The notes under the pieces: generated by a model | The model's input: the letters and a program-made list of their open reading frames with translations, nothing else | Database searches by the model: none | Told to the model about the DNA's origin: nothing | Position numbers and translations under genes: made by a program | NCBI GenBank assembly: GCA_022843705.1 | Contig: JALHND010000001.1 | Location: forward strand, 26,762 to 90,761 | From: Burkholderiales bacterium | GTDB taxonomy: Bacteria; Pseudomonadota; Gammaproteobacteria; Burkholderiales; SG8-41 | Direction: 5' to 3' | Length of the DNA: 64,000 nucleotides | Part shown: positions 7,159 to 59,811 of the stretch, piece after piece | Position numbering within the stretch: the stretch's first letter is position 1 | Layout of the letters: every line of letters begins with the position of its first letter

Positions 7159-7249
7159 CTGTGCAGCAACGCCTCCGGGCGGATCCGGATGACCCGCCGA
7201 AGGAATTACAATTTAATGTTTATAATCAAATACTTATTGAGAATTGCCG

Positions 7250-8263
7250 TCAGCCTGCGCGGCTGCGTCCGGCAAGCCTGCGCAGTTCGGCATGCATAAC
7301 ATCGGTAACGGCAATGCCGCCGGCCTGCGCCTGCGCAAGCGCGGCCTGCCGCCGTGTGCCGGGCAGGCGCACGCCATCATCGGCAAGCATGCCCGCAACC
7401 ATGTCCTCGATGCGCGAGTAATAAACCTCCGCACCCGCCAGCGCCTGCGGATCAATCGCAATCAGCGCATGGCCGATGCGCGGCTTGTTGCCGGGTTCGA
7501 AGTACGAATCGTTTTCCACGCTCAAGGCCGCGCCGGTCAGCGCGACGCACAGTGCCTCGACCATCAGCGCCAGCGCAGCACCCTTGACGCCGCCGATCGC
7601 GGTCAGGCTGCCGGTCAGCGCCGCCTGCGCGCTGGTCGTCGGATTGCCGTCGCGGTCGACCGCCCAGCCCGGCGGTATCGGTTTGCCTTCCTTCGCCATC
7701 AGCATGATCTTGCCGCGGGTCACTTCGGTCAGCGACAGGTCAACGACGATCGGCGCGGCGTCCCTGCGCGGAAAAATCGCGGCAATCGGATTGGTGCCGA
7801 AATACGCCCGCTTGCCGCCCCAGGCATTGATCGCCGCCGGCGAATTGGTCAGCGCAATGCCGGTCATGCCGGCCGCGGCGAGCGGCGCAAGGTGGTAGGC
7901 CGCGGCGCCGAAGTGATGACTGTTGGTGACGCCGGCAAAAGCGATGCCGTAACGCCGCGCGCGTTTGACCACTTCGGTCACCGCCAGCGCCGCCGCCGGA
8001 AACGCCAGTCCGCCGCCGGCATCGATCAGGCAGGTCGCCCCCTGCTTGCGCACAATCTTCGGTTTCGCCTTGCCGCTGGCGCGCCCCTCGCGCAGGTGCT
8101 GCGCGTAAAGCGCGACGCGGGACAGGCCGTGGCCGGAGAGGCCTTCGGCTTCGGCCACCACCAGCGCATCAGCCGTGGACTGTGCCATCGACTTCGACGC
8201 GCCGGCGCGTTTCAGCGCCCGCGTGACCAGGTCGGCGAGTTCGGCGGTCGTCAGTGTCGGCAT
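7250..8263 (-). CDS. Ldh2-family (malate/L-lactate/sulfolactate dehydrogenase type 2) oxidoreductase
   Basis: ORF 7250..8323 trimmed to the ATG at 8263 (MPTLTTAELADL...), 10 nt below the upstream gene stop. Family motifs: GHGLSRV, VTNSHHFGAAAYH, GTNPIA, GGVKG. Confidence 0.8.
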   Translation of the reverse strand: MPTLTTAELADLVTRALKRAGASKSMAQSTADALVVAEAEGLSGHGLSRVALYAQHLREGRASGKAKPKIVRKQGATCLIDAGGGLAFPAAALAVTEVVKRARRYGIAFAGVTNSHHFGAAAYHLAPLAAAGMTGIALTNSPAAINAWGGKRAYFGTNPIAAIFPRRDAAPIVVDLSLTEVTRGKIMLMAKEGKPIPPGWAVDRDGNPTTSAQAALTGSLTAIGGVKGAALALMVEALCVALTGAALSVENDSYFEPGNKPRIGHALIAIDPQALAGAEVYYSRIEDMVAGMLADDGVRLPGTRRQAALAQAQAGGIAVTDVMHAELRRLAGRSRAG

Positions 8264-8273
8264 CGCGGCACTC

Positions 8274-9260
8274 TCAGTCCACAGTGGTACCGGACTGTTT
8301 CGCAACTTCAGCCCACTTCGCAAGCTCCGAGCGGAAAAACGCGGAAAACTCGGCTGGCGTGTTGCCGCTGGGTTCGGCGCCCTCGGCCCGGATCCGCTTC
8401 ACCACCTCCGGCGACTTGACTGCCGCAACCCACTCCCGGTAGAGCTTGTCCTGCACCGGCTGCGGCGTCTTGACGGGCACCAGCAGGCCGTTCCATTGCA
8501 GCGCAAGGTGATCCTTGACGCCGGCCTCGATCATCGTCGGCACCTCGGGTGCCACCGCAGAACGCACCTTGTCGGCCACGCCGAGCCCGCGCAGGCGGTT
8601 GTTGCGGATGTGCGGCGCCGCCACCGGCATCACCACAAAAGCCACCTGCGATTCACCGGTCAGCAGCGCCACCGAAGCGGGTGCCGCGCCCTTGTACGGC
8701 AGGTGGGTGATGCGGGTGCCGGTTTTGACCCGCAGCATTTCCATCGCCATGTGCGACATCGTGCCGGTTCCCGCCGACGAATAATCGAGCGAGTTGGGCT
8801 TGGCCTTTGCCAGCACCACCAGGTCCTTGACGGTTTTCACCGGCAGTGCAGGGTGGGCCACCAGCGCGAAGGGATAGGAAGAAGCCATCGATATCGCGGC
8901 AAAGTCGTTGACGGGATCGTAGCTCAGCTTCTTGTAGATTGCGGGGCTGATCGAGATCGACGAATTGGCGAAAAACACCGTGTAGCCGTCGCCCGGTGCC
9001 TTGGCCACGATGTCGGCGGCAATGTTGCCGCTGGCGCCGGCCCGGTTGTCGACGATCACCTGCTGGCCGAGCTGCTGCGAGAATTTCTGCGCGATGATGC
9101 GCGCCACCAGGTCGCTGCCGCCGCCCGCGGGGAACGGCAGCACCATGCGGATCGCCCTCGCCGGAAACTCCTGTGCAGCCGCCGGCACCGCGCCCGCGGC
9201 AACCGCCATCACGGCACAGAAACCGTGCAACAGAATATTGAATCGGGCAGCCATGGCCAC
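8274..9260 (-). CDS. Bug/TctC-family tripartite tricarboxylate transporter substrate-binding protein
   Basis: 328 aa with a signal peptide, then FPARAIRMVLPFPAGGGSDLVARIIAQKFSQQLGQQVIVDNRAGASGNI, the canonical Bug/TctC N-terminal pattern. Confidence 0.85.
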   Translation of the reverse strand: MAMAARFNILLHGFCAVMAVAAGAVPAAAQEFPARAIRMVLPFPAGGGSDLVARIIAQKFSQQLGQQVIVDNRAGASGNIAADIVAKAPGDGYTVFFANSSISISPAIYKKLSYDPVNDFAAISMASSYPFALVAHPALPVKTVKDLVVLAKAKPNSLDYSSAGTGTMSHMAMEMLRVKTGTRITHLPYKGAAPASVALLTGESQVAFVVMPVAAPHIRNNRLRGLGVADKVRSAVAPEVPTMIEAGVKDHLALQWNGLLVPVKTPQPVQDKLYREWVAAVKSPEVVKRIRAEGAEPSGNTPAEFSAFFRSELAKWAEVAKQSGTTVD

Positions 9261-9357
9261 TCCTCCCTGGTTATATGTGGAAATCCGGAACAGGATGCTC
9301 GCGGACCGGCAGTCTCGCCTGCCGGCGCGGAAAAATCAAACGCCGGCGGCCCCGGGG

Positions 9358-11073
9358 TCAGGCCGGTGTCAGCAGCGACTGCCCCGGTTTGACACGGGTG
9401 AAATGCACCGGCCGCGTTTCGCTGCTGAAACGCCCTTCACGCCAGCCGACACAGGTGTAGCGTGAGTTCTCGAGGTCGCGCACGTCGGGAAAGTCGGCGC
9501 GGAAATGCGAGCCGCGCGAGTCCTCGCGCGCCATCGCGGCAAACCGGATCGACTTCGACACCAGCACCAGGTTTTTCAGGTTCAGCCAGTCGTGCCAGGT
9601 CAGGTTGAAGGCCAGCGTTGAGCCGTCGACACCGGTCGCATCAAGCCGCGCATCAAGCTCGTTGAGCTGATCTTCGGCGCGAACCAGCGATGCAGCATCG
9701 CGGACGATACCGACGTCATCCCACATCACGTTGTAGAGTTCCTCGCGGATCGAGTTGATGTCGCCGCCCTTGCGTGTCAGCGGCGCACGGCAACGCGCCA
9801 CCGCGGCATCAATCGAGTCCTGGTCGGGGGCGCGGAATTCGCCGTGGGCCTTGACCCAGCCCGGCATCACGTCACCGGCAATGCCGCCGAACACCGTTGA
9901 ATTGGCCACGCCGTTGCCGCCGAGGCGGTTGGCGCCGTGCACCCCGCCGGAATCCTCGCCGGCGACGAACAGTCCCGGCAGATCAGTGCTGCAATCCGTT
10001 TTGAACACCACGCCGCCCATCATGTAGTGTGCGGTGGGCACCACGTCGACCAGGCCGCCGACCAGGTCAAAACCGCAGTCGGCGCAGCGTTCGACCATGC
10101 CCTTGAATTCCTTGCGCACCATCACCGGATCGAGGTGTTTCATCGTGATGTAGAGGCCGCCGTTCTTGTTGACACGTCCGGCGCGCATTTCCTCGTACAT
10201 GCCGCGGCTGACGATGTCGCGGGTGGCGCGCTCGTTGCGCGGGTCATAGTTGTGCATGAAGCGCTCGCCGGCGCCGTTCAGCAGGTAACCGCCGGCGCCG
10301 CGCAGGCCTTCCTCGATGATGGTGCCGGTGATGCGGGTGTCGGAACCGGCAATCAGGCCGGTCGGGTGAAACTGCACCATTTCCATGTCGCGCAGCATCA
10401 GGCCGCCGCGCAGCGCCATCGCCATGCCGTCGCAGCTCTTGTCGCCGCTGGGCGTGTGGAATTTGTACATCGTCGGTCCGCCGCCGGTGGCCAGCAGCAC
10501 CGCCTGTGCCTGCACGAACACGAATTCGCCGCTGCGCATGTCGATCATCAGCACGCCGGAGATCGCATCACCGGTCTTGTTGCGGATGAACTCCACGGCC
10601 CGGTGCTCTTCCAGCCGGTCGATGCCGCGCGCCCACACCTGTTCGGCGAGCCGGTTGATGATCTCGATGCCGGTGAGGTCGCCCTTGTGCACCGTGCGGT
10701 CGAAGGTCTGACCGGCAAATGCCTTCTGGTGGATGGTACCGTCGGGGTTGCGGTCGAAGAAGCAGCCGAGCTCGTTCTCGAGCTCGTGGATGCGCTCCAC
10801 CGCAGTCTCGACCAGCGTCCACGCCAGGTCCTGGTCGGGCAGCCATTTGCCGCCCTCGATGGTGTCCATGAAATGGCGCTCGACCGAATCGCCGGCGGCG
10901 AGCGCGACGTTGTAGCCGCCCTGCACCATGCGCGTGCAGCCGGTCTTGCCGAGCAGCCCCTTCACCGCGACGGTGATCTTCAGTTGCGGGTTGTGCTGGT
11001 GGGCGTGCAACGCGGCAAAAAGTCCGGCGCCGCCGGAGCCGAGAATCAGGATGTCGGTTTTGATGGTTTGCAT
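9358..11073 (-). CDS. FAD-binding succinate dehydrogenase/fumarate reductase flavoprotein-like subunit (non-covalent-FAD type)
   Basis: 571 aa. Dinucleotide fold DILILGSGGAGLFAAL, catalytic MVQFHPTG and EEGLRGAGGYLLN. The position of the SdhA/FrdA covalent-FAD His (RSHTVxAQGG) reads GCTRMVQGG. Confidence 0.85.
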   Translation of the reverse strand: MQTIKTDILILGSGGAGLFAALHAHQHNPQLKITVAVKGLLGKTGCTRMVQGGYNVALAAGDSVERHFMDTIEGGKWLPDQDLAWTLVETAVERIHELENELGCFFDRNPDGTIHQKAFAGQTFDRTVHKGDLTGIEIINRLAEQVWARGIDRLEEHRAVEFIRNKTGDAISGVLMIDMRSGEFVFVQAQAVLLATGGGPTMYKFHTPSGDKSCDGMAMALRGGLMLRDMEMVQFHPTGLIAGSDTRITGTIIEEGLRGAGGYLLNGAGERFMHNYDPRNERATRDIVSRGMYEEMRAGRVNKNGGLYITMKHLDPVMVRKEFKGMVERCADCGFDLVGGLVDVVPTAHYMMGGVVFKTDCSTDLPGLFVAGEDSGGVHGANRLGGNGVANSTVFGGIAGDVMPGWVKAHGEFRAPDQDSIDAAVARCRAPLTRKGGDINSIREELYNVMWDDVGIVRDAASLVRAEDQLNELDARLDATGVDGSTLAFNLTWHDWLNLKNLVLVSKSIRFAAMAREDSRGSHFRADFPDVRDLENSRYTCVGWREGRFSSETRPVHFTRVKPGQSLLTPA

Positions 11074-11088
11074 AAAATCAGAGACCTT

Positions 11089-11170
11089 GCCACAGAGAAC
11101 ACAGAGTTCACAGAGAACAGCAAAAACGGGGGTGCCGGTTTTCCTCTGTGCTCTCTGCGCCCTCTGTGGC
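11089..11170. repeat. REP-like imperfect palindrome built from CACAGAG / CTCTGTG heptamers
   Basis: Left arm gccacagagaacacagagttcacagagaaca, right arm cctctgtgctctctgcgccctctgtggc. Terminal 9 bp are perfectly complementary. Lies in the 114-nt gap between the ttdB-like and frdA-like genes. Confidence 0.6.
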
Positions 11171-11187
11171 TAAAAGGGTTGTGGGTT

Positions 11188-11799
11188 TCAGGATTTGACA
11201 CCCAGCGCCGCCAGTACGCCGGCACGCTGGTCCTTCGCCGCGGCGTTGACCGCGGTATAGAGGCTGCCGCCGTGGGAATCCATCGCCACCAGAAGCGGAC
11301 CGAAGCCGCTGATGCGGAACTTCCACAGCGATTCGGGATTGAGGTCGTCGAGGTCGACCTCCTCGATCTGCTCGATCCAGGTGGTTTCCAGCGCGGCAGT
11401 GCCGCCGATGATCGCAAGATAGACCCCGCCGAGATCGGCGAAGGCCTTCGCCGACGCGGCGAACAACCCGCCCTTGCCGATGATGATGCGCACGCCGTAC
11501 TGCTCCATCAGCGGCCGCGTGAAGCGTTCCATGCGAGCGCTGGTTGTGGTGCCGATGCAGATCGGCGCATACCCTGAAGGGTGCGCCTTGGTTTCGCCCA
11601 CCCACTTGACGTTGGGTGCGGTGTGGACGACGGCGTGGCCGCGCATGTCAAAACGCGTCTTGCGGCCGTGGTCGAACATGTGGATCTGGGTGGCGTCGCG
11701 GATGCCGTAGAGGGTCTGGTGCAGCGTGACAGTGTCGTTGATGCGCAGCTTGCGCACCTGCTCTTCACTGACCGGCATGTTGAGTTCGTAATGGGCCAT
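11188..11799 (-). CDS. Fe-S hydro-lyase beta subunit (class I fumarase C-terminal / L-tartrate dehydratase TtdB type)
   Basis: 203 aa: MAHYELNMPVSEEQVRKLRINDTVTLHQTLYGIRDATQ...RIIIGKGG. Matches the fumarate hydratase class I C-terminal domain family. Confidence 0.85.
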   Translation of the reverse strand: MAHYELNMPVSEEQVRKLRINDTVTLHQTLYGIRDATQIHMFDHGRKTRFDMRGHAVVHTAPNVKWVGETKAHPSGYAPICIGTTTSARMERFTRPLMEQYGVRIIIGKGGLFAASAKAFADLGGVYLAIIGGTAALETTWIEQIEEVDLDDLNPESLWKFRISGFGPLLVAMDSHGGSLYTAVNAAAKDQRAGVLAALGVKS

Positions 11800-11808
11800 G
11801 TCCGTATC

Positions 11809-12684
11809 CTAGTACCCGTACGAGAGGCCTTGCGGCGTGAAAGTTGCCCTTGCGCGCCGCGCCGAATGGCACTGCATGTTGACCGCGACGGGATTCATCG
11901 TAATGTGGGTGGCTGCGGTCTCGACATGCACCGCAAAGGCCGTGGAATCGCCGCCGAGGCCCTGGGCGCCGACACCGAGCTTGTTGACCACGGCGGAGAG
12001 TTCGGCCTCGAGTTTCGCACCCTCGGGGTCGGCGCAGACGCTGCCCAGCGGCCGCGTCGCCGCGACCTTCGACAGGTGCACGCAGAGATCGGCGGTGCCG
12101 CCGACGCCGACGCCGACGATCACCGGCGGGCAGCTCTTGCCGCCGGCCTCGAGCACGCAGTCGATGACGAAGGTCTTGATCGCATCCACGCCGTCGGCGG
12201 GAATCGCCATCTTCAGCCAGGAGTTGTTCTCCGAGCCCGAGCCCTTCGGGATCATCTCGATCGACAGCGTGTCGGCATCCGCGGTGAAATCAATGTTGAT
12301 CACCGGCACGTGGCGGCCGCCGGAGGTATGTTCGTTCTTGCGCGTCGTCGGGTGCACCACCGACGAACGCAGCGGGTGCTCCTTCGTCGCGCGGGTGCAG
12401 CCGCTGACGATCGCCTGTTTCAGCGCGTGGCCATCGATCTCGATGCCGGAACCGATGACGACGTTGTAGATGGGAATGCCGGTGTCCTGGCACAGCAGGT
12501 TGGTGTTGTCCTCGGCCACCTTGATGTTGCGGATCATCGTGCCGAGAATGGCTTTGCCGGTGGCGTTGGTTTCAGCACTGTCCAGCCGCTGGAAACCCTG
12601 CTTGATGTCCGGGGGAAGCATCTTGAGCGCGCGGATATAGAGCTCCTTGCACGCCTCTTCCACCTGTTTGAGATCGACTTTCAC
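11809..12684 (-). CDS. Fe-S hydro-lyase alpha subunit (class I fumarase N-terminal / L-tartrate dehydratase TtdA type)
   Basis: 291 aa with LCQDTGIPIYNV and GGKSCPPVIVGVGVGGTAD, typical of the TtdA/FumA N-terminal domain. Stop lies 9 nt before the beta subunit start. Confidence 0.85.
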   Translation of the reverse strand: MKVDLKQVEEACKELYIRALKMLPPDIKQGFQRLDSAETNATGKAILGTMIRNIKVAEDNTNLLCQDTGIPIYNVVIGSGIEIDGHALKQAIVSGCTRATKEHPLRSSVVHPTTRKNEHTSGGRHVPVINIDFTADADTLSIEMIPKGSGSENNSWLKMAIPADGVDAIKTFVIDCVLEAGGKSCPPVIVGVGVGGTADLCVHLSKVAATRPLGSVCADPEGAKLEAELSAVVNKLGVGAQGLGGDSTAFAVHVETAATHITMNPVAVNMQCHSARRARATFTPQGLSYGY

Positions 12685-12755
12685 GGTATTGCCCTGGAAT
12701 CGGATTGATGCGGATGGAAAAAGGCCCGCGGCATCATGCCACGGGCCGCGTTGCG

Positions 12756-13718
12756 TCAGTTCACCTGCAGCTTGCGCTCGTTGATGATCTTCACCCAGCG
12801 CGAGCCTTCTTCCTTGATCGCTTTGGCGAATTCTGCGGGGGTGTTGCCGACAGGAACCATGCCCAGATCCTCGAAGCGCTTGGAGATGACAGGATCACCC
12901 AGGGCAGCCACCGTGTCCTTGTGGATTTTCGCCACAACCGGCGCCGGCGTTCCCGTCGGGACCATAAAACCGAACCAGCCGAGGTTTTCGAATCCCGGCA
13001 GGGTTTCCGCCACCGCCGGCACATCCGGCAGCTGTTTCGAGCGCTCCTTGCTGGTCACGGCCAGCGCACGGAGTTTTCCGGACCGCACAAAGGCAATGGC
13101 GGCGGAAAGGTTGGGGGTTACAAACTGGATTTGTCCGCCAATCAGGTCGCTGACGGCCGGCGCCTCACCCTTGTACGGGATGTGCACCACGTCAATGCCG
13201 GCGCTGAATATGAAATTCTCCCCGGCAAGGTGGGTCTGGGTGCCGATTCCGGCCGATCCGAAGGTCACGCCCTTCGGTTTTGCCTTGGCCATGTTGATCA
13301 GGTCCCTGACGGTTTTCGCGGGAAAACTCGGATTGACGACAATAGCCTGGGGACCGCTGGCAACGTTGGTCACCGCCAGCAGATCCTTCTCCGCACTGTA
13401 GGGAAGTTTCCTGTACATGTGGGGATTGGCAGTGACGATCGAGCCCGAAGTCATGAATATCGTATAGCCGTCGGCGGGCGCCTTCGCCGCAAGTTCGGCG
13501 CCGATGTTGCCGCCCGCACCCGCGCGGTTATCGACCACGATGGTCTGGCCCCAGGTTTCGGTCAGTTTCTGTGCAACAACACGGGTCACGATGTCGGTCG
13601 CCCCCCCGGCCGAGAAGGGCACGATGATGCGGACCGGCTTGTTCGGGAAATCCTGGGCGACTGCCGTGGTTGATGCCAGCAGGGCCGCTGTCACGAGAAT
13701 CAGTCTTGTCTGTTTCAT
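12756..13718 (-). CDS. Bug/TctC-family tripartite tricarboxylate transporter substrate-binding protein
   Basis: ORF 12756..13892 trimmed to the ATG at 13718, preceded by GGAGGAGG. N-terminus MKQTRLILVTAALLASTTAVAQDFPNKPVRIIVPFSAGGATDIVTR... Confidence 0.85.
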   Translation of the reverse strand: MKQTRLILVTAALLASTTAVAQDFPNKPVRIIVPFSAGGATDIVTRVVAQKLTETWGQTIVVDNRAGAGGNIGAELAAKAPADGYTIFMTSGSIVTANPHMYRKLPYSAEKDLLAVTNVASGPQAIVVNPSFPAKTVRDLINMAKAKPKGVTFGSAGIGTQTHLAGENFIFSAGIDVVHIPYKGEAPAVSDLIGGQIQFVTPNLSAAIAFVRSGKLRALAVTSKERSKQLPDVPAVAETLPGFENLGWFGFMVPTGTPAPVVAKIHKDTVAALGDPVISKRFEDLGMVPVGNTPAEFAKAIKEEGSRWVKIINERKLQVN

Positions 13719-13815
13719 GTTGCTCCTCCTCCGGATCGGTTTATCGATGGTTTTATGCGGTGACACCGGGTTTACGATACTCCAAGCCTTTCGGGCGGGG
13801 CAAGGCGCCGGCGCC

Positions 13816-15222
13816 TCAAAGGCCCAGCGCATCCGCAGCCAGCCTGCGCAATTCACGATGCATCTTGTCGCGCAGCGCCCTCGCCGAAGCACGATGGGCG
13901 ATGTTGACCATTTCGTAAGGATCCTTCTCCAGGTCGTAGAGCTCGTCCAGCTCGCCGTTGCGCGCGCGGTTGACCCAGTGGATGTACTTGTAGCGCTCGG
14001 TGCGCACCGCCTTGTAGGTCATGTTCACCAGCCAGGGATAGGCGTTCTCGGCCCAGTACTCGACCAGCAGCGACTTGCGCCAGCCGGCCGCCCTGCCGCC
14101 ACGCAACAGCGGCAGCAGCGAGCGTCCCTGGATGTGGCCGGCGGGTTTGCCGCCGGCGATCTCGATCAGCGTCGGCGCGAGGTCCTGCAGGATCGCCAGC
14201 TGTTTCACCCGCGATCCGGCCCGGATCTTTCCCGGCCAGCGGATGGTCAGCGGCGAACGGATGCCCTCTTCGTAGGCAAAGCGCCGTTCCGGCCCGATGC
14301 CGTGCTCGCCGAAGAAGTAACCGTTGTCGCCGAGGAACAGGATCACCGTGTTGTCGAGCTCTCCGGTTTCTTCCAGCGCCTGGAATATCATGCCGACGCC
14401 CTCGTCGACCGCGGCCATCATCGCCGCGCGCAGGCGGATTTCCTCCTGCTTGCCGGAGTGGATGGCGTCGTGCATCACCTTCGATGCCGGCGTCTTGCGC
14501 AGGGCGACGGCCTCCGCCCAGGCCGGCTTGTGCTTGAGAAATTCGGACGGCTTCTGCATGTTCGGCTTTTTCGGGAACACGCAGCCTTTGTAGAGATTCT
14601 GGTGGCGTTTCGCCGGACGGTAACCGTCCATCTTGAAGCTGCCATCGGCCGCCTGCTCCGCATCCGGATGCACCGCCTTGTGCGCAAACCACAGCGACCA
14701 GGGTTTCTTGTTCCTTTTGCGCCCCTGGCCGCGGATCCAGTCGACCGCCATCGTGTTCATGATGTCGGTGACATAACCCTTGTGCTGGACGTACTTGCCG
14801 TTTTCGTTGAGCTTCGGATCGTAGAGATTGCCGTGGCCGTCATAGGCCACCCAGAAATCGTAGCCGGGCCGCGGCTTGCCGTCGTTGCCCATGTGCCACT
14901 TGCCGATGTGCGCGGTCTCGTAACCGAGGCGCTGCAGTTCGAGGTGGTAGTTCGGCAGGCGGTGGCTGGCCAGGTCGCGCGCGACGTTGTCGATGATGCC
15001 GTGGCGGCTCGCGTACTGGCCGGTCAGGATCGAGGCGCGGTTGGGCGAGCAGATCGGCGTGGTGTGGAAGGCGCGCTCGAACAGCGCGCCCTCGTGCGCG
15101 ATACGGTCGATGTGCGGCGTCTTCATGTACGGATGGCCGCCGGCACCGAACTCGTCGAAACGCAGATCATCGACCAGGATCAGCAGCAGGTTAGGCTTGT
15201 TCCGATTCTGTTTCTTGCGCAT
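13816..15222 (-). CDS. Cys-type sulfatase (arylsulfatase family) lacking a signal peptide
   Basis: ORF 13816..15624 trimmed to the ATG at 15222 (MRKKQNRNKPNLLLILVDDLRFDE). Formylglycine motif CSPNRASILTG is present. Only about 9 residues precede the conserved PNLLLILVDD core. Confidence 0.85.
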   Translation of the reverse strand: MRKKQNRNKPNLLLILVDDLRFDEFGAGGHPYMKTPHIDRIAHEGALFERAFHTTPICSPNRASILTGQYASRHGIIDNVARDLASHRLPNYHLELQRLGYETAHIGKWHMGNDGKPRPGYDFWVAYDGHGNLYDPKLNENGKYVQHKGYVTDIMNTMAVDWIRGQGRKRNKKPWSLWFAHKAVHPDAEQAADGSFKMDGYRPAKRHQNLYKGCVFPKKPNMQKPSEFLKHKPAWAEAVALRKTPASKVMHDAIHSGKQEEIRLRAAMMAAVDEGVGMIFQALEETGELDNTVILFLGDNGYFFGEHGIGPERRFAYEEGIRSPLTIRWPGKIRAGSRVKQLAILQDLAPTLIEIAGGKPAGHIQGRSLLPLLRGGRAAGWRKSLLVEYWAENAYPWLVNMTYKAVRTERYKYIHWVNRARNGELDELYDLEKDPYEMVNIAHRASARALRDKMHRELRRLAADALGL

Positions 15223-15245
15223 CTCCACTCCCCCTTTGCAGCAAC

Positions 15246-15593
15246 TCAGACCAGGTTCAGCAGGAAGGCCAGTCCCGCAACCAGCGAAACCCCGGCGGCA
15301 ATGGCGAGCAGCGTTTTCTGCCACTCGCGCCATTCCAGGAATTCCAGCGCCAGCAGGCGCAGGCCGCCGGCCATGTGCGCGGCGAGCAGCAGCACCAGGC
15401 CGGTTTCGGCGAATTTGACCAGCGGCTGCTCGGTCCAGCGCAGGAAACCGTCGAGTGCCGCGGCGCCCTGCAGGGCCTGGCCCAGCGCCCAGAAATGCAG
15501 CGGCAGGAACAGCGCGAGCAGCACGCCGGAGAGGCGGTGGACGATGAAGGCCCAGTAGGCCGGGTGGTTGCGCGAGCGGAAATCGTTCTTCAT
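15246..15593 (-). CDS. succinate dehydrogenase/fumarate reductase membrane anchor, SdhC-like (3 TM)
   Basis: 115 aa MKNDFRSRNHPAYWAFIVHRLSGVLLALFLPLHFW... with an HRxSG motif and three hydrophobic helices. ATGA overlap with the upstream gene. Confidence 0.65.
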   Translation of the reverse strand: MKNDFRSRNHPAYWAFIVHRLSGVLLALFLPLHFWALGQALQGAAALDGFLRWTEQPLVKFAETGLVLLLAAHMAGGLRLLALEFLEWREWQKTLLAIAAGVSLVAGLAFLLNLV

Positions 15594-15937
15594 GCGCCGC
15601 CTCCGAACACCGCGAACACTGCACGCATCCCCCACATCGCGAGGCTCAGGCCGATGATGCCGGTCAGCACATCGAGTCCGCGGCCGCGCCAGTTGCACAT
15701 CTCGCCGATGATCGTGCGCAGGCCGATCGGCGCATGCACCGCGACCGCGGCGACGAACAGCGTGTAGAACGCGAACCAGGCGACGCTGCCCTGGGTGCGG
15801 CCGAGGATCTCGGCGGCGGAAAGGCCGCTGCGCACGGCGTAGATCATGGTCACCAGGTGCACGACAACACAAAGCGCCAGCACCATCGCGCTGATCCGCT
15901 GGGCGCCCCACAGCAGGACTTCGCTGCGCCGGCTCAT
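15590..15937 (-). CDS. succinate dehydrogenase/fumarate reductase membrane anchor, SdhD-like (3 TM)
   Basis: 115 aa with three hydrophobic segments carrying His residues (VVVHLV, AVAVHAP). GAAGGAAG lies upstream of the ATG. Context is between the FrdB-like and SdhC-like genes. Confidence 0.6.
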   Translation of the reverse strand: MSRRSEVLLWGAQRISAMVLALCVVVHLVTMIYAVRSGLSAAEILGRTQGSVAWFAFYTLFVAAVAVHAPIGLRTIIGEMCNWRGRGLDVLTGIIGLSLAMWGMRAVFAVFGGGA

Positions 15938-15991
15938 GGAGCGAATCTTCCTTCAGGGATATTATATAAGTAATTGATTTTAAACATATTT

Positions 15992-16705
15992 TTATATTTC
16001 GCCCGAAAGCGTTGCGGCGAGCACTGCGCGCTTCAGGCCGGCGATGCCTGCCGTCGGCGACAGGCCCTTCGGGCAACGCTCGGTACAGTTGAGATGGGTG
16101 TGACAGGCATGGCAACCGGCATCACCGGCCACCGCCGCCAGGCGCTCCGCGCGCGCGGTGTCGCGCACGTCGTTGACCAGCGTCCACGCGCGATTGAGCG
16201 CTGCGGGGCCGAGATAGTCCTTGTTCCAAGTCACCACATCGCAGGCGCTGTAACAAACGCCGCAGCCGATGCATTCGATGCCGGCATCGACGCGTTTGCG
16301 TTCCTTCGACTCCGGCGACACGCGCTCGAATTCGTCCTTTCGCGTCTTGCTGCCGGTGAAGCGGCCGCGCGCGCGCGCCCACTTGTCAAAGAATTCGCGC
16401 ATGTCGGTGACCAGATCCTTGACCACCGGCAGGTTGCGCAGCGGTGCGATCTCGAGCCGGTTGTCGGCAGCGACCTTCGATACATGGGTGCGGCAGGTCC
16501 AGCGCGATTGGCCGTTGACCGTCATCGCGCAGGAGCCGCAAACGCCGACGCGGCAGGCAAAGCGGTAGGCCAGCGTCGGGTCACATTTGCGCTGCACGTA
16601 AGTCACGACATCGAGCACCGTCTGGCTTTCCTGCCGCGGGACTTCGAACTCCTGGAAGCCGCCCTCTTCGGCTCCGCGCCAGATCCTGACCTTGAGGTTT
16701 TCCAT
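15992..16705 (-). CDS. succinate dehydrogenase/fumarate reductase iron-sulfur subunit-like protein
   Basis: ORF trimmed to the ATG at 16705 (MENLKVRIWRG...). Cluster motifs: CRVGVCGSCAMTVNG..C (2Fe-2S), CIGCGVCYSAC, and CHACHTHLNCTERCP. Confidence 0.85.
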   Translation of the reverse strand: MENLKVRIWRGAEEGGFQEFEVPRQESQTVLDVVTYVQRKCDPTLAYRFACRVGVCGSCAMTVNGQSRWTCRTHVSKVAADNRLEIAPLRNLPVVKDLVTDMREFFDKWARARGRFTGSKTRKDEFERVSPESKERKRVDAGIECIGCGVCYSACDVVTWNKDYLGPAALNRAWTLVNDVRDTARAERLAAVAGDAGCHACHTHLNCTERCPKGLSPTAGIAGLKRAVLAATLSGEI

Positions 16706-16715
16706 GAGCGTGCTC

Positions 16716-18368
16716 CTAATGCGCGGCGCCGGCCGCACCGGCAGTCACTGTCGGCGCCGGCAAACGCTGGATCATCACGTTGATGCAGGCCGGTTTGCCG
16801 CTCGCCAGCGCGCGCTGCAGCGCAGGTTGAAGATCGGCGGCGCGCGTCACCAGTTCGCCATGTCCGCCCAGCGCGGCCACCGCGAGATCATAACGCGTGC
16901 CTTCGCGCAGTTCGCAGCCGTGCGCGCGTTCCTTGCCGTAGCTGCGCAGCTGGATCTGGTGTTCGGCGTTCCAGCAGGAATCATTGCCGACAACCACAAT
17001 CATCGGCACACCGTCGCGCACCGCGGTGTCGAACTCCATCAGATGAAAGCCGAAGGCGCCGTCACCCATCACCGCGATCACCGGGGCCTGCGGCCGCGCC
17101 ATGCGCGCGGCAAAGGCAAAGGGCACACCGCTGCCGATCGAACCACCGGTGCCGTTGATCACGCGCGCCGGCGCGCTGATGCAGGCCTGGGCCCACTGGC
17201 CGATTTCGCCGCCGTCGGCAACAAAAACAGCATCGGGCGAAGCATCAAGCACGGCCTGTACCGCATGGCCGAGTTCGACCGGGTGCACCGGGCCGTTGCC
17301 GCTGTCGATGGCACGCCAGGCTTCGGGACGGAATGCCACGGCATCGGTAACCTGTTTCATCCAGCCCTGTGCCGGATGGCGCTGCGCTGCGGCGGCCAAC
17401 GCCTGCACCGTGGCCGCAGTGTCGGCCTGCGCCGAAAATGCGACGCGGGCGGCACCCAGGTTCTTCACCGAGCGCTGCAGGACTTCGGTTTCGGGATCGA
17501 TCACCGCAAAGCGGCAATCCGCCGCCAGCGCCGGCGCCTTGCCGAAACGCAGCGTGAAATCGGGTTGCTTGCCCAGCAGCACCACCAGATCGGCCTGCGC
17601 CAGCAGGCCGGCAAATGCGCCCATCGAAGGATCGTTGACGCCGCGCGGGCTCTCCATGCACAGCACCGGCACGCCGGCCGCGCCGGCCAGCTTCCCGGCG
17701 AATCCGGCAAACGGGACTTGCGACATGGACGGCCCGAGCAGGATCAGCGGGCGGGCGGCTTCCCTGAGCAGTGCCAGCAGGGTCTGCACCGCGGCCTGCG
17801 GCAGCGGGTTCGCCGGCGCCGCGAAATCGGCGGCTGCGGCCAGATGTTTTTCACCGTCGGCGACCTTCGCCTCCAGCACGTCAAAAGGCAGGCTCAGGTG
17901 CACCGGACCCGGCCGCCCGGAACGGGCGATGCGGCAGGCACGCGCAATGTCGGCACCCAGCGTTTCAGCGCTGCCCGCGGTCCACGACGCCTTGACCACC
18001 GGCGCCGCCATGTCGGCCTGGCGCATTTCCTGGAAGGAACCGCGTCCGAGTTCGTTGAGGGGAGCGTGGCCCGAGAGCAGAACCAGCGGCGACTCCGAGG
18101 CCAGCGCGGTGTACAGCGCACCGATGCCGTTGGCATGGCCGGGGCCGCCGGTCAGCATCGCAATCCCCGGCTCTCCGGTGAGCCTCGCCCAGGCATCGGC
18201 CATGTGCACGGCCGCGCCTTCGTAACGCACGTGGGTGATCGCCAGCTTCGCCTCGATCGCCGCATCGTAGACCGGCATGATGTGGTTGCCGGAGAGCGAA
18301 AAAATCCGTTTCAGCCCGGCCTGCGCCAGTGAGCGCGCAAGAATGTCGGCGCCGCGGAGTGTCGTCAT
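16716..18368 (-). CDS. thiamine pyrophosphate-dependent enzyme (acetolactate synthase / oxalyl-CoA decarboxylase / sulfoacetaldehyde acetyltransferase superfamily)
   Basis: 550 aa. N-terminal Pyr domain with catalytic Glu (HVRYEGAAVHMADAWARLTG). C-terminal TPP motif GDGAFGFHLMEFDTAVRDGVPMIVVVGND. Confidence 0.85.
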   Translation of the reverse strand: MTTLRGADILARSLAQAGLKRIFSLSGNHIMPVYDAAIEAKLAITHVRYEGAAVHMADAWARLTGEPGIAMLTGGPGHANGIGALYTALASESPLVLLSGHAPLNELGRGSFQEMRQADMAAPVVKASWTAGSAETLGADIARACRIARSGRPGPVHLSLPFDVLEAKVADGEKHLAAAADFAAPANPLPQAAVQTLLALLREAARPLILLGPSMSQVPFAGFAGKLAGAAGVPVLCMESPRGVNDPSMGAFAGLLAQADLVVLLGKQPDFTLRFGKAPALAADCRFAVIDPETEVLQRSVKNLGAARVAFSAQADTAATVQALAAAAQRHPAQGWMKQVTDAVAFRPEAWRAIDSGNGPVHPVELGHAVQAVLDASPDAVFVADGGEIGQWAQACISAPARVINGTGGSIGSGVPFAFAARMARPQAPVIAVMGDGAFGFHLMEFDTAVRDGVPMIVVVGNDSCWNAEHQIQLRSYGKERAHGCELREGTRYDLAVAALGGHGELVTRAADLQPALQRALASGKPACINVMIQRLPAPTVTAGAAGAAH

Positions 18369-18488
18369 CGGTATCCTGGTCTTTCCATTTCAGTCAGCAA
18401 CGGCAATCCCGGACTCGCGGGACAGCCGCAAAACCCGCAGGGCCGGCATGATGATCCTGCCGGCCCTGCGGTTTGGCGCAAAAAATGC

Positions 18489-34222: not shown

Positions 34223-35125
34223 CTAGTTGCGGCGCGCCAGCCGCGAGCGGCCCGCCCAGTCACGCGCAAACTGCCAGGCCACACGGCCACTGCGGGATCC
34301 CCGCAACAGCGCCCATTGCAGCGCTGCATGCTCGACCTCCGCGGTTTTGCCGGACGGCACCTTGAAGTGGTCGAGCCAGACACGGACGATGCCCAGGTAC
34401 TCGTCCTGGTCGAAGGGATAGAACGAGACCCAGAGACCGAAGCGCTCGGACAGGGAAATCTTTTCCTCGCTGGTTTCGCCGGGATGGATTTCCTCGCCGA
34501 CATGCCGGTATTCGAGATTTTCCTGCATGAACTCGGGCATCAGGTGGCGGCGGTTCGAGGTCGCATAGATCAGGCAGTTTTCCGACGCGGCGGCGACCGA
34601 ACCGTCAAGCACCACTTTCAAAGCCTTGTAACCGGGCTCGTCGGCCTCGAACGACAGGTCATCACAGTAGAGAATGTAACGTTCGGGACGCGCGTGGATC
34701 AGCTCGACAATGTCCGGCAGATCGGTCAGGTCGCGCTTCTCCACTTCGATCAGCCGCAGGCCGCGTGGCGCATACTTGTTCAGCAGTGCCTTGACCAGCG
34801 ACGACTTGCCGGTGCCGCGGGCGCCGGTGAGCAGGACGTTGTTCGCAGGCAGTCCGTCGACGAATTGCCGGGTATTGCGCTCGACCAGGTTCTTCTGGTC
34901 ATCGATGCCCTGCAGGTCGCGCAAATCGATGCGGTGCACCTGGTGTATCGGTTCCAGGTTTCCCTGGCCCGACTTCTTGCGCCAGCGGAAGGCGATCGAC
35001 GCCTTCCAGTCAATCGGCGGAGGCGAAGGCGGCAGCAGCTGCTCGAGCCGTCCCAGCACGCCTTCGGCGCGCGCCACCAGGTTTTCCCATGACACAGCCG
35101 GATTTTCAGGCGGCTTTTTATTCAT
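34223..35125 (-). CDS. DUF815-family P-loop ATPase
   Basis: 300 aa with Walker A LLTGARGTGKSSLVKALL, Walker B-like ILYCDDLSF, and ATSNRRHL. Confidence 0.75.
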   Translation of the reverse strand: MNKKPPENPAVSWENLVARAEGVLGRLEQLLPPSPPPIDWKASIAFRWRKKSGQGNLEPIHQVHRIDLRDLQGIDDQKNLVERNTRQFVDGLPANNVLLTGARGTGKSSLVKALLNKYAPRGLRLIEVEKRDLTDLPDIVELIHARPERYILYCDDLSFEADEPGYKALKVVLDGSVAAASENCLIYATSNRRHLMPEFMQENLEYRHVGEEIHPGETSEEKISLSERFGLWVSFYPFDQDEYLGIVRVWLDHFKVPSGKTAEVEHAALQWALLRGSRSGRVAWQFARDWAGRSRLARRN

Positions 35126-35149
35126 AACTATTTGTTTTTATTGATAAAA

Positions 35150-36388
35150 TTAGCTTCTGTAGTCGGCATTGATGCTGACATAGTCATGCGACAGATCACA
35201 GGTCCATACGGTCGCCGCAGCCTTGCCTCGGTTCAGCACCACGCGCACCGTGATCTCGGCCTGCTTCATCACGCGCTGGCCGTCGGACTCCCGGTACGAC
35301 GGGCTGCGCCCGCCATGCTCCGCCACCAGCACGTCATCGAGATAAAGTTCGATGCCTTCGACTTCGAGATCGGCGATGCCGGCATAACCGATCGCCGCAA
35401 GTATCCGGCCGAGGTTCGGATCGGATGCAAAAAAAGCGGTTTTGATCAGCGGCGAATGCGCTATGGCCAGTGCAACCTTGCGGCATTCCTCCTCGTTGCG
35501 GCCTGAGTCAACCTTGACGGTGATGAACTTGGTTGCCCCCTCGCCGTCGCGGATGATCGCCTGGGCAAGTTCGATCGCCACCGCAGTCACGGCATCACGG
35601 AAAGCCGTGTACTCGGCGCTTTTTGCATCGACAATCTCCGCCATCGCCGCCTTGCCGGTGGCCATCAGCATGAAACTGTCATTGGTCGAAGTATCGCCAT
35701 CGACGGTGATGCAATTGAACGAGCGCTGCGCGGCATGGGCAACCGCGGACCTGACCAGTACCTGGCTCACCACGGCATCGGTCGCAATGAAACCGAGCAT
35801 GGTCGCCATGTTGGGATGAATCATGCCGGCACCCTTGGCAATGCCGGTCACAGTCACCGTCGCACCGCCGATGATGAACTGGCGGGAAACCGCCTTCGGC
35901 AGCGTGTCGGTGGTCATGATCGCCGCGGCGGCATCCGCCCAGACATCGGCGCGCAGTACATCCCGGCATTGCGGCAGTCCGGCGATGATGCGGTCCACCG
36001 GCAACGGCTCCATGATGACCCCGGTCGAAAACGGCAGCACCTGCGACGGCAGGCAGCCAAGCAGTCGCGCCGCTTCGGCGCAGGTCTGACGTGCGCGTGC
36101 GAGTCCGTCCTTGCCGGTGCCTGCATTCGCCACACCGGTATTGATCACCAGTGCGCGTATGCCCTGGCCGGGATCAATCATCGACAGGTGCTGGCGGCAG
36201 ACCACCACCGGCGCGGCACAGAAACGGTTCTGCGTGAACACGCCGGCAACACGGGTGCCGGCTTCAAGTCCGATAAGCAGCAGGTCCTTGCGGCCCGCCT
36301 TGCGGATGCCGGCCTGGGCAATACCCAGCATCACGCCGGGAACCGGCAGCAGCGACGCGGGATCGGGTGCGTTCAGGTTGACGGGCAT
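35150..36388 (-). CDS. argJ: bifunctional glutamate N-acetyltransferase / amino-acid acetyltransferase ArgJ
   Basis: ORF trimmed to the ATG at 36388 ([10 protein letters not shown]...), 4 nt after the secA stop. The autoprocessing site [11 protein letters not shown] is present. Confidence 0.92.
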
Positions 36389-40184: not shown

Positions 40185-40625
40185 ATGCCCACCCGCAAAT
40201 TCAGCGCCCTGATTGTAGAAACAGCGGGCTTGTCAGCACTGAACCGGGCAACGCAGCGCATTTCAGCACTGCAACGGCTTTATTCGGTCTGCGCGCCCCC
40301 TGAACTGTCCCTGGCAAGCCGGGTGGTCGGGGACCACAACGGCACGCTGGTCATAGCGGCAGACAACGGTGCAATCGCGGCAAAACTGAAGCAGATCATG
40401 CCCCGACTGCTGAAGAACCTGCAAAAGCAGAGCGCGCAGGTTACTGGAATCCGGATTCAAGTTCAAGTTTCCGGACAACAACCTGCAGCCCGGGTTTACA
40501 CCGAAAAACCGGAGTTACCCATTGATTTAATTGATAATTTTGAAAAACTGTCAAACCGGGTTCAAGATCCCGGGTTACGCTCGGCCCTTGCCCGCTTTGC
40601 CGCCAGGCGCCGTAGCAAGGGCTGA
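40185..40625 (+). CDS. DUF721 (DciA-like) protein
   Basis: 146 aa with ...HNGTLVIAADNGAIAAKLKQIMPRLLKNL..., resembling DUF721. The position between lpxC and secA is typical in betaproteobacteria. Confidence 0.55.
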   Translation: MPTRKFSALIVETAGLSALNRATQRISALQRLYSVCAPPELSLASRVVGDHNGTLVIAADNGAIAAKLKQIMPRLLKNLQKQSAQVTGIRIQVQVSGQQPAARVYTEKPELPIDLIDNFEKLSNRVQDPGLRSALARFAARRRSKG

Positions 40626-49536: not shown

Positions 49537-50705
49537 ACGGTAAACCCGCGCTGCATCTGGCGATTCTCCCAGTCGACCCGCAGCAGCACCGCCAGCGCGC
49601 AACAGGTGGCGAGGATCGCGCTGCCACCGAAAGACAGCAGGGGCAGCGTCAGTCCCTTGGTTGGCAGCACCCCCATGTTGACGCCCATGTTGATGATCAC
49701 CTGCACGCCGATCCACAGGCCGATGCCCTGCGCCACCAGCGCCGCATACGGCCGGTCAAGATCGGCCGCGCGACGGCCGATGGCAAATGCCCGCGCGACG
49801 ATCCAGGCGAACAGCAGCACCAGCGCCAGCACGCCGGCAAAACCGAGCTCCTCGGCAATCACCGCCAGCAGGAAATCGGTGTGCGCCTCGGGCAGGTAGA
49901 ACAGCTTCTCGACGCTGGCGCCGAGGCCGACGCCGAACCATTCGCCACGGCCAAAGGCAATCAGCGCATGTGAAAGCTGGTAACCCTTGCCGTAGGGATC
50001 CGCCCAGGGATCCATGAAACCGATTACCCGCTGCATGCGGTACGGACTGCTCCAGATCAGCAGCAGGAAACCGAGCACCAGCATCACGATCAGACCGGCG
50101 AACAGCTTCCAGTTCATGCCGCCGAGAAAGAGGATGCCCATCGCGATCACCGTGATCACCGCAAACGCGCCGAAATCGGGTTCACGCAGCAGCAAGCCCC
50201 CGGTCAGCAGCATCACGCCGGCCATCGGCAGGAAACCCTTGCGCAGGCTGTGCATGAATGCCGCCTTGCGCACGGTGTAGTCGGCGGCGTAAAGCACCGC
50301 GCACAGTTTCATCAGTTCCGAGGGCTGCAGGTTGGCAATGCCCAGCGGCAGCCAGCGCCGGCTGCCGTTGACCTCGCGGCCGATGCCCGGTATCAGCACC
50401 AGCATCAACAGAACCATGCCCAGCACGAACAGCAGCGGCGCGGCACGCTGCCAGACCCGCAATGGCACCTGGAACACGATCGCGGCCGCCACCAGGCTGA
50501 CCAGGATGTAGGCGGCATGCCGGGTCAGGTAGTACACCGCGCTGTTGCCGGTGCTGCGGCTTGCCTCGGCGATCGCGATCGATGCCGAATACACCATGAC
50601 CATGCCGAACCCCAGCAGCAGCAGCGTCACCCAGATCAGTGCGCCGTCGTATTCGTCGCCGGCCGCACGCTGGTTGACCGTGGCGTAGTACTGGCTCACG
50701 CGCAC
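49533..50705 (-). CDS. ftsW: peptidoglycan glycosyltransferase FtsW (SEDS family)
   Basis: 390-aa polytopic protein with ...VMVYSASIA..., ...PSELMK... and [14 protein letters not shown]. Confidence 0.93.
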
Positions 50706-52069
50706 CTCCGCTGCAGTGCCGACACCGCATCCGCAAACACCTCGGCGCGGTGCACGTAATTGCGATACATGTCATAACTCGCACAGGCCGGCGACAGCAG
50801 CACGGCGTCACCCGGCTGCGCAGCCCTGAAGGCGAGTTCCACCGCTTCATCCATGTCGCGAGCCTGTTGCAGCGGCACATCACTGCCAACCGCCGCCGCA
50901 ATGCGCGGTCCGTCGCGCCCGATCAGCACGATCGCCCGTGCGCGGCCGCGTGCAGCCGCGGCCAGCGGCGCGAAATCCTGACCTTTGCCGTCTCCGCCGG
51001 CGATCAGCACCACCGGCTCGCGCAATCCGGTCAAAGCTGCGACGGTTGCGCCGACGTTGGTGCCCTTGGAATCGTCGTAGAATGTTATCTCATTGATTTT
51101 ATTGATATTTTTTACGCGATGTGGCAGCCCCTCAAATCGTTGCCAGCCTTCGACAATGGCCCCATCGGCAACACCGATGGCGCGACACAGGGCCCCCGCC
51201 GCCAGCGCGTTGGCCGCGTTGTGCAATCCGGCGACGCGCAACACACCAACCGGCGCCAGTTCAAACGGGCCGCGCTGCAGTGTTGTACCGTCATTGCCGA
51301 GACCCCAGTCCTCGCCGGCAACCGGTGCATCAAGGCCGAAAGTCACCTTGCGCCGGCCGGCGATTGCCATGCCGCGACTCCATCCGTCATCGCGGTTCAG
51401 CAGCTGCAGTCCGTCTCCCGCGAAAATCCGCGCCTTTGCTGCGGCGTATTCGCTCATGCCGTCATAACGGTCGAGATGGTCTTCCGACAGGTTGAGCACC
51501 GTTGCGGCCTGCGGCCGCAGCGACATCGTGCTTTCGAGCTGGAAACTCGAGAGCTCCAGCACGATTGCCCCCGGCATCTCCGCGCCGTCCTCGATGTCGC
51601 TGAGTGCATCCAGCACCGGCAGTCCGATGTTGCCGGCCACCAGCGGCCGCAGACCTGCCGCACGACAGATTTCCCCGGTCATCGCCGTCACCGTGCTCTT
51701 GCCGTTGGAGCCGGTGATGGCCAGCACCGGCGGCGCATCGCCGAGTGCGGCGAGTGCCTGCGAAAAAAGTTCGATGTCACCGACCACCGGAATGCCGCGC
51801 TTCGCCGCGTCGGCCAGCGGGCCGCGGCGACGATCGATGCCCGGGCTCACGGCGATGATCCCGGCGCGCGCAACCTCGTCCTCGGGCACGGCGCCGAGCA
51901 GCAGCGGCAGCCCGGGGCATTCCCGCCGCAAAACCTCCGCTGCGGGCGGCGCAGCGCGCGTGTCCGCGGCGAGGACATTTGCGCCGTGGCGGCTCAACCA
52001 GCGCGCCATCGACAGGCCGGTGTCGCCGAGGCCGATGACCAGGACGCGGGCTCCTGCGAGATCGAGCAT
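50696..52069 (-). CDS. murD: UDP-N-acetylmuramoylalanine--D-glutamate ligase
   Basis: Start at the ATG 52069 gives [20 protein letters not shown]. Contains GSNGKSTV and [11 protein letters not shown]. An in-frame ATG at 52174, 1 nt after the mraY stop, would add 35 aa. Confidence 0.92.
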
Positions 52070-52175
52070 CAGCAGCACCTCCGCGTCTTCGCGGCGAATC
52101 CGCGCAAGTAGCAGCCTGCCGCAGGCATCTCGGCAGTGGCTGGCATCGCGGGTTCCGGGGGTCGGCATGTGCATC

Positions 52176-59531: not shown

Positions 59532-59557
59532 TCCCACTTTCTACCACTTCATCCCAC
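59532..59557 (-). promoter_or_regulatory. three direct GTGGGA/GTGGTA boxes at 10-bp spacing (candidate MraZ operator)
   Basis: Minus strand reads GTGGGAtgaaGTGGTAgaaaGTGGGA, immediately downstream of the predicted -10 and about 60-80 nt upstream of the mraZ start. Confidence 0.5.
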
Positions 59558-59584
59558 TATAAATAACTGAGGGATGCGGGTCAA
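59556..59584 (-). promoter_or_regulatory. candidate Pmra sigma70 promoter (TTGACC-17 nt-TATAGT)
   Basis: On the minus strand, TTGACC (59584-59579) and TATAGT (59561-59556) with an exact 17-nt spacer. Confidence 0.5.
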
Positions 59585-59811
59585 GGGTCGAATTCCGAAA
59601 TTCCTTTTTAATGACAACGACTTACGGCGACTTGTTGAGGCCTGATTTCAGGGTTTTTTGTCCCAGAAATAAGTCAATCAAAACAAAAGGATATTACGCG
59701 TACTGAAAGTAGCGCATTAAGTAATTATGCTTAAAAATCAGGCAATTACAGGAATTCGCTGCGTCGCCGGACAGCGACATCCTGTCCGATGGCAGTTTTC
59801 GGACTGAGGAA

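Follow-up and report, generated by a model that had tools for sequence, protein, structure and literature searches.

IHF is nearly universal in Proteobacteria. At ilvPG of E. coli it is placed at about -90, and a shift of supercoiling-induced melting to the -10 region has been proposed there. The Fis sites upstream of rRNA promoters are likewise a case of upstream architectural activation of sigma-70 promoters; we know of no example of such activation at rpsP. Sites of the IHF type are also carried by dispersed repeats, namely the RIP/BIME elements of E. coli and the Correia elements of Neisseria, which is a betaproteobacterium like the source of the DNA described here. An IHF site is built from a WATCAA core, a TTR located 4 bp away and AA steps 9 bp apart, with an A-tract of 4-6 A on the 5' side as an element of some sites (PMC1874591; 10.1101/382655). 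We analyzed a 64-kb stretch of DNA (hereafter the window, meaning this stretch at its full length) from an uncultured betaproteobacterium, to which the nearest species representatives were only 92% identical in Ffh, and all four of these elements could be read in the sequence of four AT-rich sites. We consider these four strong sites to be probable high-affinity binding sites of the IHF type, and put the probability of this reading, with IHF as the protein that would bind them, at roughly 0.6. The genes ihfA and ihfB lie outside both the window and the loci fetched for comparison, and their presence was assumed from the distribution of IHF in Proteobacteria.

The G+C content of the window was 64.6%, and its AT-rich islands, defined as 30-bp segments with no more than 30% G+C, numbered 14 (713 bp in total, 31% GC). 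A sequence-only reading of this DNA had described a recurrent AT-rich word of about 20 bp in such islands and had taken it for an IHF-like site. The 20-mers and the two related cores that it quoted were all found where it had placed them, and the recurring exact word AAGTAATTG occurred exactly twice in the window. When up to two mismatches were allowed, AAGTAATTGATTTTAAAC matched at three places (15968 on the plus strand, 24789 on the plus strand and 7218-7235 on the minus strand), and no match arose by chance in 100 shuffles of the whole window. Since shuffling the whole window is too lenient for AT-rich words, a second and stricter null was used in which only the 14 islands were shuffled. 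Any pair of islands with a common 18-mer (up to two mismatches) appeared in 1% of these shuffles and a single 18-mer matching two other islands in none of 300, as against three such pairs in the real sequence, formed by the islands at 7.2, 16.0 and 24.8 kb. Because the island-only shuffles did not reproduce these three matching pairs, the recurrence of the 20-mer is real and far above the AT-rich null. The enrichment found in the islands for 7-mers gave a noisy picture, in which AAAAACA, AAAACAA and AATCAAT were among the top 20 words and did not stand out. The IHF consensus WATCAANNNNTTR was matched exactly at 7224-7236 (plus strand) and 15967-15979 (minus strand), that is, twice where 0.41 occurrences were expected, and the 24.8-kb copy, AAACAATTACTTG, had one mismatch to it, both as had been claimed.

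To avoid circularity, the position matrix (PWM) that we used to define the family was trained on 20 sites, none of them from the window. A trial search of viral contigs for the motif gave at least 120 hits, which were chance matches in AT-rich DNA, and the comparison was instead anchored on proteins. It drew on 80 ffh loci of species-representative genomes and 80 recQ loci of metagenomic origin. The extended consensus in the GC-rich ffh loci consisted of an A-rich tract, about 9 nt, WA(T/A)CAA, N4 (often WTAS) and TTR. Four strong sites in the window scored between 16.9 and 23.5, the 99th percentile of shuffled islands being 12.1, and had their cores at 7224-7236 (plus), 15967-15979 (minus), 24788-24800 (minus) and 35125-35137 (minus). 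All four had the same layout, with an A-tract, about 9 nt, WA[T/A]CAA, 4 nt and TTR, and the 5' side of the sites was found in two forms, ATGTTTAAAAACAA and ATCAATAAAAACAA. Four further hits were weaker, with scores of 13.1 to 15.4 (51098 minus, 59612 plus, 59681 plus and 40527 minus). The copies stood at a density of about one per 8-16 kb, some 7 of 8 independent sites were co-oriented with the downstream gene, and several occupied the whole of a stop-to-start gap. Of the two related cores, the one reported at 35128 turned out to belong to a full strong member (core 35125-35137, minus strand), and the one at 51089 lies inside murD and has no TTR. The regulatory location that had been claimed for the copies does not apply to the 51089 core, which is murD coding sequence and no regulatory spacer. 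The proposed fourth copy, aagtaattatgcttaaaaat at 59719-59738 on the plus strand, had to be dropped from the family, since it shares only AAGTAATTA/TTACTTA; its minus strand, GCATAATTACTTA, retains TTACTTA and has no CAA core, and it scored below threshold in its own register.

Strong site 2 (24786-24815, minus strand; tataaaaccatttaaAAACAATTACTTGta, core 24800-24788, PWM 21.0) lies between rpsP (24401-24658, minus strand) and a nitroreductase gene (24835-25689, plus strand). The promoter of the rpsP operon, TTGCCT-18-TAGAAT at 24698-24727 on the minus strand, was recognized both by a promoter scan and as a conserved block in an alignment of ten relatives with identical RpsP (alignment A1), and the centre of the site is about 103 bp upstream of the inferred transcription start. 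In this alignment TT.AAAACA(A/G)-N4-TT(A/G) was kept, and the N4 and the surrounding spacer varied. Many betaproteobacterial lineages, with or without the nitroreductase gene, had a site resembling the IHF consensus upstream of their rpsP promoter, and the exact AATCAA-N4-TTR occupied this position in the more distant lineages L167, L196, L217 and L219. Of the 11 lineages in which the spacing between the core C and the first base of the -10 hexamer was measured, 9 had 92-95 bp, across intervening sequence that could not be aligned; it was 106 bp in L170. In L217 the site was inverted and its centre was unchanged (92 bp vs 91). A fixed centre together with a free orientation is what a bend would need, as opposed to a directional signal, and an architectural bend at about -103 of rpsP would fit these sequences. 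The sequence-only reading had placed this copy in the rpsP/nitroreductase divergent region, where it was indeed present, and we assigned it to rpsP rather than to the nitroreductase, since the site is also kept by lineages that lack the nitroreductase gene. Only the source lineage and close relatives have this gene between ffh and the rpsP upstream site; elsewhere in the betaproteobacteria the site and the rpsP promoter come immediately after ffh. The nitroreductase gene therefore looks like an insertion that spared the rpsP control region.

A bend about 103 bp upstream of the transcription start of the rpsP operon could wrap upstream DNA back onto RNA polymerase; alternatively, supercoiling-induced melting could be shifted from the AT-rich island to the -10 region. 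Either arrangement would resemble the activation known from ilvPG and from Fis at rRNA promoters in that a predicted bend lies about 100 bp upstream of a strong housekeeping promoter and in an easily melted AT-rich island. It would differ in that the motif does not fit the G-N13-C of Fis, that activation is a prediction here, and that E. coli has no such site at rpsP, as a comparable site was not found in the region upstream of that gene. A literature search on rpsP together with IHF returned nothing relevant.

The gene layout around the sites was taken from Pfam scans and from gene calls on near-identical public contigs. Strong site 1 (15965-15994, minus strand; taaaaatatgtttaaAATCAATTACTTAta, core 15979-15967, PWM 23.5) occupies the 54 bp that separate an SdhB-like Fe-S gene from an SdhC-like one, so placed that the Fe-S stop codon TAA (15994-15992) falls within its A-tract; the ATG of the SdhC-like gene is at 15937. 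Orthologues of the site were found in the Fe-S/SdhC-like spacer of L141, L143 and L222, and the flanking proteins of L141 and L143 were 82-97% identical. An exact look-up of the 248-aa Fe-S ORF gave no match, the start codon probably being different, and that of the SdhC-like protein gave matches from the same species only. The genes here form an unusual minus-strand catabolic cluster (7250-19793) made up of a GD_AH dehydratase, a TPP enzyme, the SdhB-like Fe-S protein, two Sdh_cyt proteins, a sulfatase, TctC, a two-part Fe-S fumarase, an SdhA-like flavoprotein, a further TctC and Ldh_2, with the Sdh-like subunits separated by unrelated genes. A GntR gene (20137-20895) is divergent from this cluster.

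Strong site 3 (7209-7238, plus strand; caatttaatgtttatAATCAAATACTTAtt, core 7224-7236, PWM 16.9) lies between the Ldh_2 stop codon (7250) and the recQ ATG (7158) and is antisense to both genes. Its orthologue in L222 (RecQ 85% identity) had the same place and orientation and a PWM score of 22.2, and the site was missing upstream of recQ in relatives at or below 77% RecQ identity, in which the neighbours of recQ are different. Strong site 4 (35123-35152, minus strand; taattttatcaataaAAACAAATAGTTAtg, core 35137-35125, PWM 22.3) makes up the entire 24-bp argJ/DUF815 spacer and overlaps both the argJ stop codon TAA (35152-35150) and the DUF815 ATG (35125-35123). The DUF815 start in the window is not preceded by a Shine-Dalgarno sequence. 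The orthologues of site 4 in the argJ/DUF815 spacer of L141 and L143 have an A-rich element abutting the invariant ATG. Conservation at orthologous positions in related genomes had been suggested as a check on the motif, and it was seen for all four strong sites, which persist while their flanks diverge. At the Fe-S/SdhC-like, argJ/DUF815 and Ldh_2/recQ spacers the role of the sites would probably be local, either architectural or nucleoid-organizing, or they may modulate nearby internal promoters.

The individual elements of an IHF site were then compared position by position. The core is AATCAA at sites 1 and 3 and AAACAA, with one mismatch at position 3, at sites 2 and 4; at the orthologous rpsP site this position is A in some lineages and T in others, as would be expected with minor-groove readout. 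TTR stood exactly 4 bp 3' of the core, as TTA or TTG, in 4 of 4 strong sites. An AAAAA is located 9 nt upstream of the site 1 core, positions -14 to -9 were A-rich across 19 sites, and a CAA or TT step could be read 9 bp upstream of the core CAA (ATCAATAAAAACAA or ATGTTTAAAAACAA). The constraint fell on the consensus positions and not on N4, as the invariant TT.AAAACA...TT of alignment A1 illustrates, and the distant lineages were alike in this. Across 49 GC-rich betaproteobacterial loci, the AT-rich islands contained 8 occurrences of WATCAANNNNTTR where 1.0 was expected and 14 of AAACAANNNNTTR where 0.6 was expected, counts that overstate independence because some of them are orthologous copies. 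No enrichment was detected in the same islands when the spacing was changed by 1 (to 3 or 5) or when the core was altered.

We also compared the sites with those of phage lambda. The attP record that was fetched annotates the Int sites only, and we took the H', H2 and H1 sequences to be ...AAAAAAgcattgctTATCAATTTGTTG, TATCAATATATTA and AATCAACTACTTA. Site 1 (AATCAATTACTTA) was identical to the H1 core AATCAACTACTTA at 12 of 13 positions and site 3 (AATCAAATACTTA) at 11 of 13, and the AAAAAA of H' is 8 nt upstream of its core compared with 9 nt for the A-tract of site 1. With the IHF sites of Enterobacteria and lambda (WATCAANNNNTTR) the window sites have in common the core, the 4-bp gap to TTR, the 5' A-tract and the AA/TT steps 9 bp apart, as well as a location in AT-rich DNA upstream of promoters and an orientation that is not critical. 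They differ in that position 3 is usually A (AAACAA), in that their common consensus is much longer than that of E. coli, and in that many of the predicted sites are in very short intercistronic spacers. If IHF is the protein, the heterodimer would bind the minor groove and fold the DNA of the ~30-bp site into a U-turn, the predicted order of elements being A-tract, about 9 nt, WA(T/A)CAA, 4 nt and TTR, with a second CAA/TTG step 9 bp upstream of the core CAA. Sigma-54 promoters close to the sites would have linked them to IHF; a search for such promoters (TGGCAY-N5-TTGCW) in ~2.4 Mb returned 12 matches, none of which had a site upstream.

The fact that the rpsP site is conserved far outside the source lineage, with an exact WATCAANNNNTTR and an unchanged distance to the promoter, points to a widely conserved protein. 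This weighs against a different and possibly lineage-specific protein, either a nucleoid-associated protein or a global regulator, whose motif would overlap the IHF consensus, and we regard such a protein as a rather unlikely alternative. It would read a longer word, (A)TGTTTAAAAACAAATAsTTA, or the direct repeat ATCAAT-N3-A(T/A)CAAT, and the extended consensus does exceed what IHF requires: the ATGTTTAAAAACAA or ATCAATAAAAACAA on the 5' side and an N4 near WTAS could reflect a different or additional protein, or else common descent. IHF accounts better than a base-specific regulator for the variation in N4, for the exchange of A and T at position 3 and for the tolerance of inversion, and no candidate regulator gene was linked to the sites. 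On the other hand, AAACAA is preferred to the canonical AATCAA in the source lineage, which speaks against IHF, as do several sites at which a task for IHF is hard to see, such as those directly at a start codon or within an operon. Strong sites were also far commoner in the source lineage, a score of at least 14 being reached by 6 of 14 islands in the window and by 6 of the 281 islands that other GC-rich betaproteobacterial loci contain in 1.5 Mb (odds ratio 34, p = 3e-6), and the co-orientation of most sites with the downstream gene is not required by a pure bend. The weaker members embedded in murD and dciA, which retain two CAA repeats without TTR, fit a different protein as well.

The murD relative (51084-51113, minus strand; aaaaaatatcaataaAATCAATGAGATAac, PWM 15.4) is located in an AT-rich island (51070-51126) inside murD (50696-52174, minus strand). 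It has the A-tract and two CAA 9 bp apart, and the place of TTR is taken by ATA or TAA in the murD and dciA elements. The element encodes a 10-residue peptide at the boundary of the middle and C-terminal domains of MurD, and almost all of 120 homologues, with identities as low as 64%, retained an 18-residue peptide; the atypical homologue P0116 had HRVQQVAELGGVAFFDDSK instead. At the DNA level, AATATCAATAAAATCAAT was identical, including every synonymous site, in L302-L304 (73-82% protein identity; GC3 0.68-0.81), which therefore indicates selection on the nucleic acid. The dciA relative (40513-40542, minus strand; caaaattatcaattaAATCAATGGGTAAct) lies antisense in the 3' part of a dciA-like ORF (40185-40625, plus strand), and the central 16-mers of the two elements are one base apart. 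The island in the dciA-like ORF (40510-40559) encodes PIDLIDNFEK with codons ending in A or T, and ATT GAT TyW ATT GAT AAT was found in 3 of 4 sequences (the window and two of three relatives), the one from L305 ending in AAT GAT. Because murD and dciA carry the word on opposite strands, the constraint acts at the level of DNA. Whether the two elements are part of the same system as the strong sites is uncertain, since the A-tract and the two CAA steps are present and TTR is absent. A further coding-embedded copy may be present in a Gallionella MAG (L209, position 18486), where the full site ATTCAAATAGTTA with an upstream A-rich tract (PWM 17.2) is located inside a trpD-like ORF and encodes DEISINSNSYIAEL.

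We also weighed a broader interpretation, in which the sites are not simply IHF sites and form an abundant and strongly selected family of AT-rich elements of ~30 bp, with one copy every 10-15 kb or so. The family would have two forms, ATGTTTAAAAACAA... and ATCAAT-N3-A(T/A)CAAT..., would fill spacers, mostly in co-orientation, and would be embedded in murD and dciA with forced K/N/I/D-rich peptides and fixed synonymous sites. It could mark a system for chromosome organization or operon partitioning that is read by IHF in an unusual role or by another protein. We consider this speculative and rather unlikely.

Two hits of moderate score (59597-59695, plus strand) have their cores at 59612-59624 (TGACAACGACTTA, 15.0) and 59681-59693 (AAACAAAAGGATA, 13.3). 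They lie in the rnpB/mraZ spacer, which also holds the 59.7-kb island, upstream of the mraZ promoter and have orthologous hits in L302-L304, and their membership in the family is uncertain. The neighbouring rnpB (59812-60301, minus strand; RF00010, 276 bits), which was the sole match in an Rfam scan of the window, stands directly upstream of the mraZ-led cell-division cluster, and the plus-strand ORFs listed over it are spurious. The likely mraZ promoter, TTGACC-17-TATAGT (59545-59600, minus strand), is followed by GTGGGATGAAGTGGTAGA, and the GTGGG/GTGG repeats after it resemble the operator repeats of MraZ. Further upstream of mraZ is a direct repeat, CGACTT-N4-CGACTT, which is overlapped by the two moderate hits and conserved in L302-L304.

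A dispersed miniature repeat that spreads into intergenic spacers, perhaps carrying an IHF site, would explain the similarity of the copies by common descent. Long identical stretches were indeed found in non-orthologous copies, for instance ATGTTTAAAAACAA at the rpsP, SdhC-like and recQ sites, and the density of the copies and their habit of filling the whole stop-to-start spacer would suit such a repeat. Each copy is only ~30 bp, and no terminal inverted repeats, flanking REP-like palindromes or target duplications were found around the four sites, nor was presence/absence polymorphism seen among close relatives. Copies were kept at the orthologous place between species with 82-97% identical proteins, and the rpsP copy was kept across deeper divergence; this retention therefore indicates selection at each locus and not a recent spread. 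The many intergenic or intercistronic copies of an IHF-type site are reminiscent of RIP/BIME and Correia elements, but the window copies differ from these in having no REP palindromes or terminal inverted repeats, in their length of ~30 bp and in their stable orthology. We therefore hold an origin as a mobile repeat to be quite improbable. We also considered the mutually inverted sites 1 and 3 as the ends of a transposon (an 8.7-kb segment), and rejected this, since such a segment would break up the set of Sdh-like genes and there is a third copy with the same sense.

The AT-rich islands of GC-rich genomes often contain promoters, most of the sites are directed toward the downstream gene, and a TATAAT follows the core at site 1. 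It is nevertheless very improbable that the motif is part of a promoter, be it an UP element, a -35/extended -10 or the site of an alternative sigma factor. A sigma-70 scan found no match overlapping the motifs; sites 1 and 3 had none at all and site 2 only the separate rpsP promoter, a well-conserved element 94 bp downstream of a site that can be inverted. The recQ site is directed against recQ, in L222 as well, and the DUF815 site abuts the ATG and therefore leaves no space for a -10 and a leader. The preference of the sequence-only reading for a protein-binding or DNA-bending site over a promoter hexamer was thus supported by the orthologous conservation, the variable N4, the inversion with a fixed centre and the absence of an overlapping sigma-70-like promoter.

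An AU-rich intercistronic element acting at the RNA level (processing, binding of Hfq or S1, or enhancement of translation) was the least probable of the readings. In its favour, the majority of copies lie in intercistronic spacers in the direction of transcription, a Shine-Dalgarno sequence is replaced by the copy at DUF815, and the murD copy is on the sense strand. Against it, the copy at rpsP precedes the promoter by a fixed DNA distance and is invertible, the recQ copy is antisense to both neighbours and the dciA copy to its gene, and the motif is AT-rich sequence with no Rfam match and no potential for structure. Known operators fared no better. A site of the FNR/CRP type (TTGAT-N4-ATCAA) was rejected, as only one TTGAT half is present, the second half being AACAT or AATGG, and the repeats at murD and dciA are direct and not inverted. 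By eye, the fit was poor to a GntR/HutC operator (the neighbouring regulator) and to Fur, ArgR, ArcA, Fis, DnaA boxes and dif.

An IHF-type site, our preferred reading of the four strong sites, is well supported by sequence and by comparison with relatives but would be a fairly ordinary kind of element. Most notable, and worth follow-up, are the rpsP site, with its fixed position across Betaproteobacteria, and the relatives embedded in the coding sequences of murD and dciA. Should the strong sites prove to be IHF sites, a map of architectural sites could be read from the AT-rich islands that GC-rich betaproteobacterial genomes contain. The rpsP-rimM-trmD-rplS operon would gain a previously undescribed upstream bend element, at about -103, in several lineages of Betaproteobacteria, and its spacing would make it a well-defined system in which to study how a sigma-70 promoter benefits from a bend farther upstream. 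The murD and dciA relatives would be clear cases of a signal in the DNA that restricts the protein encoded by an essential gene.
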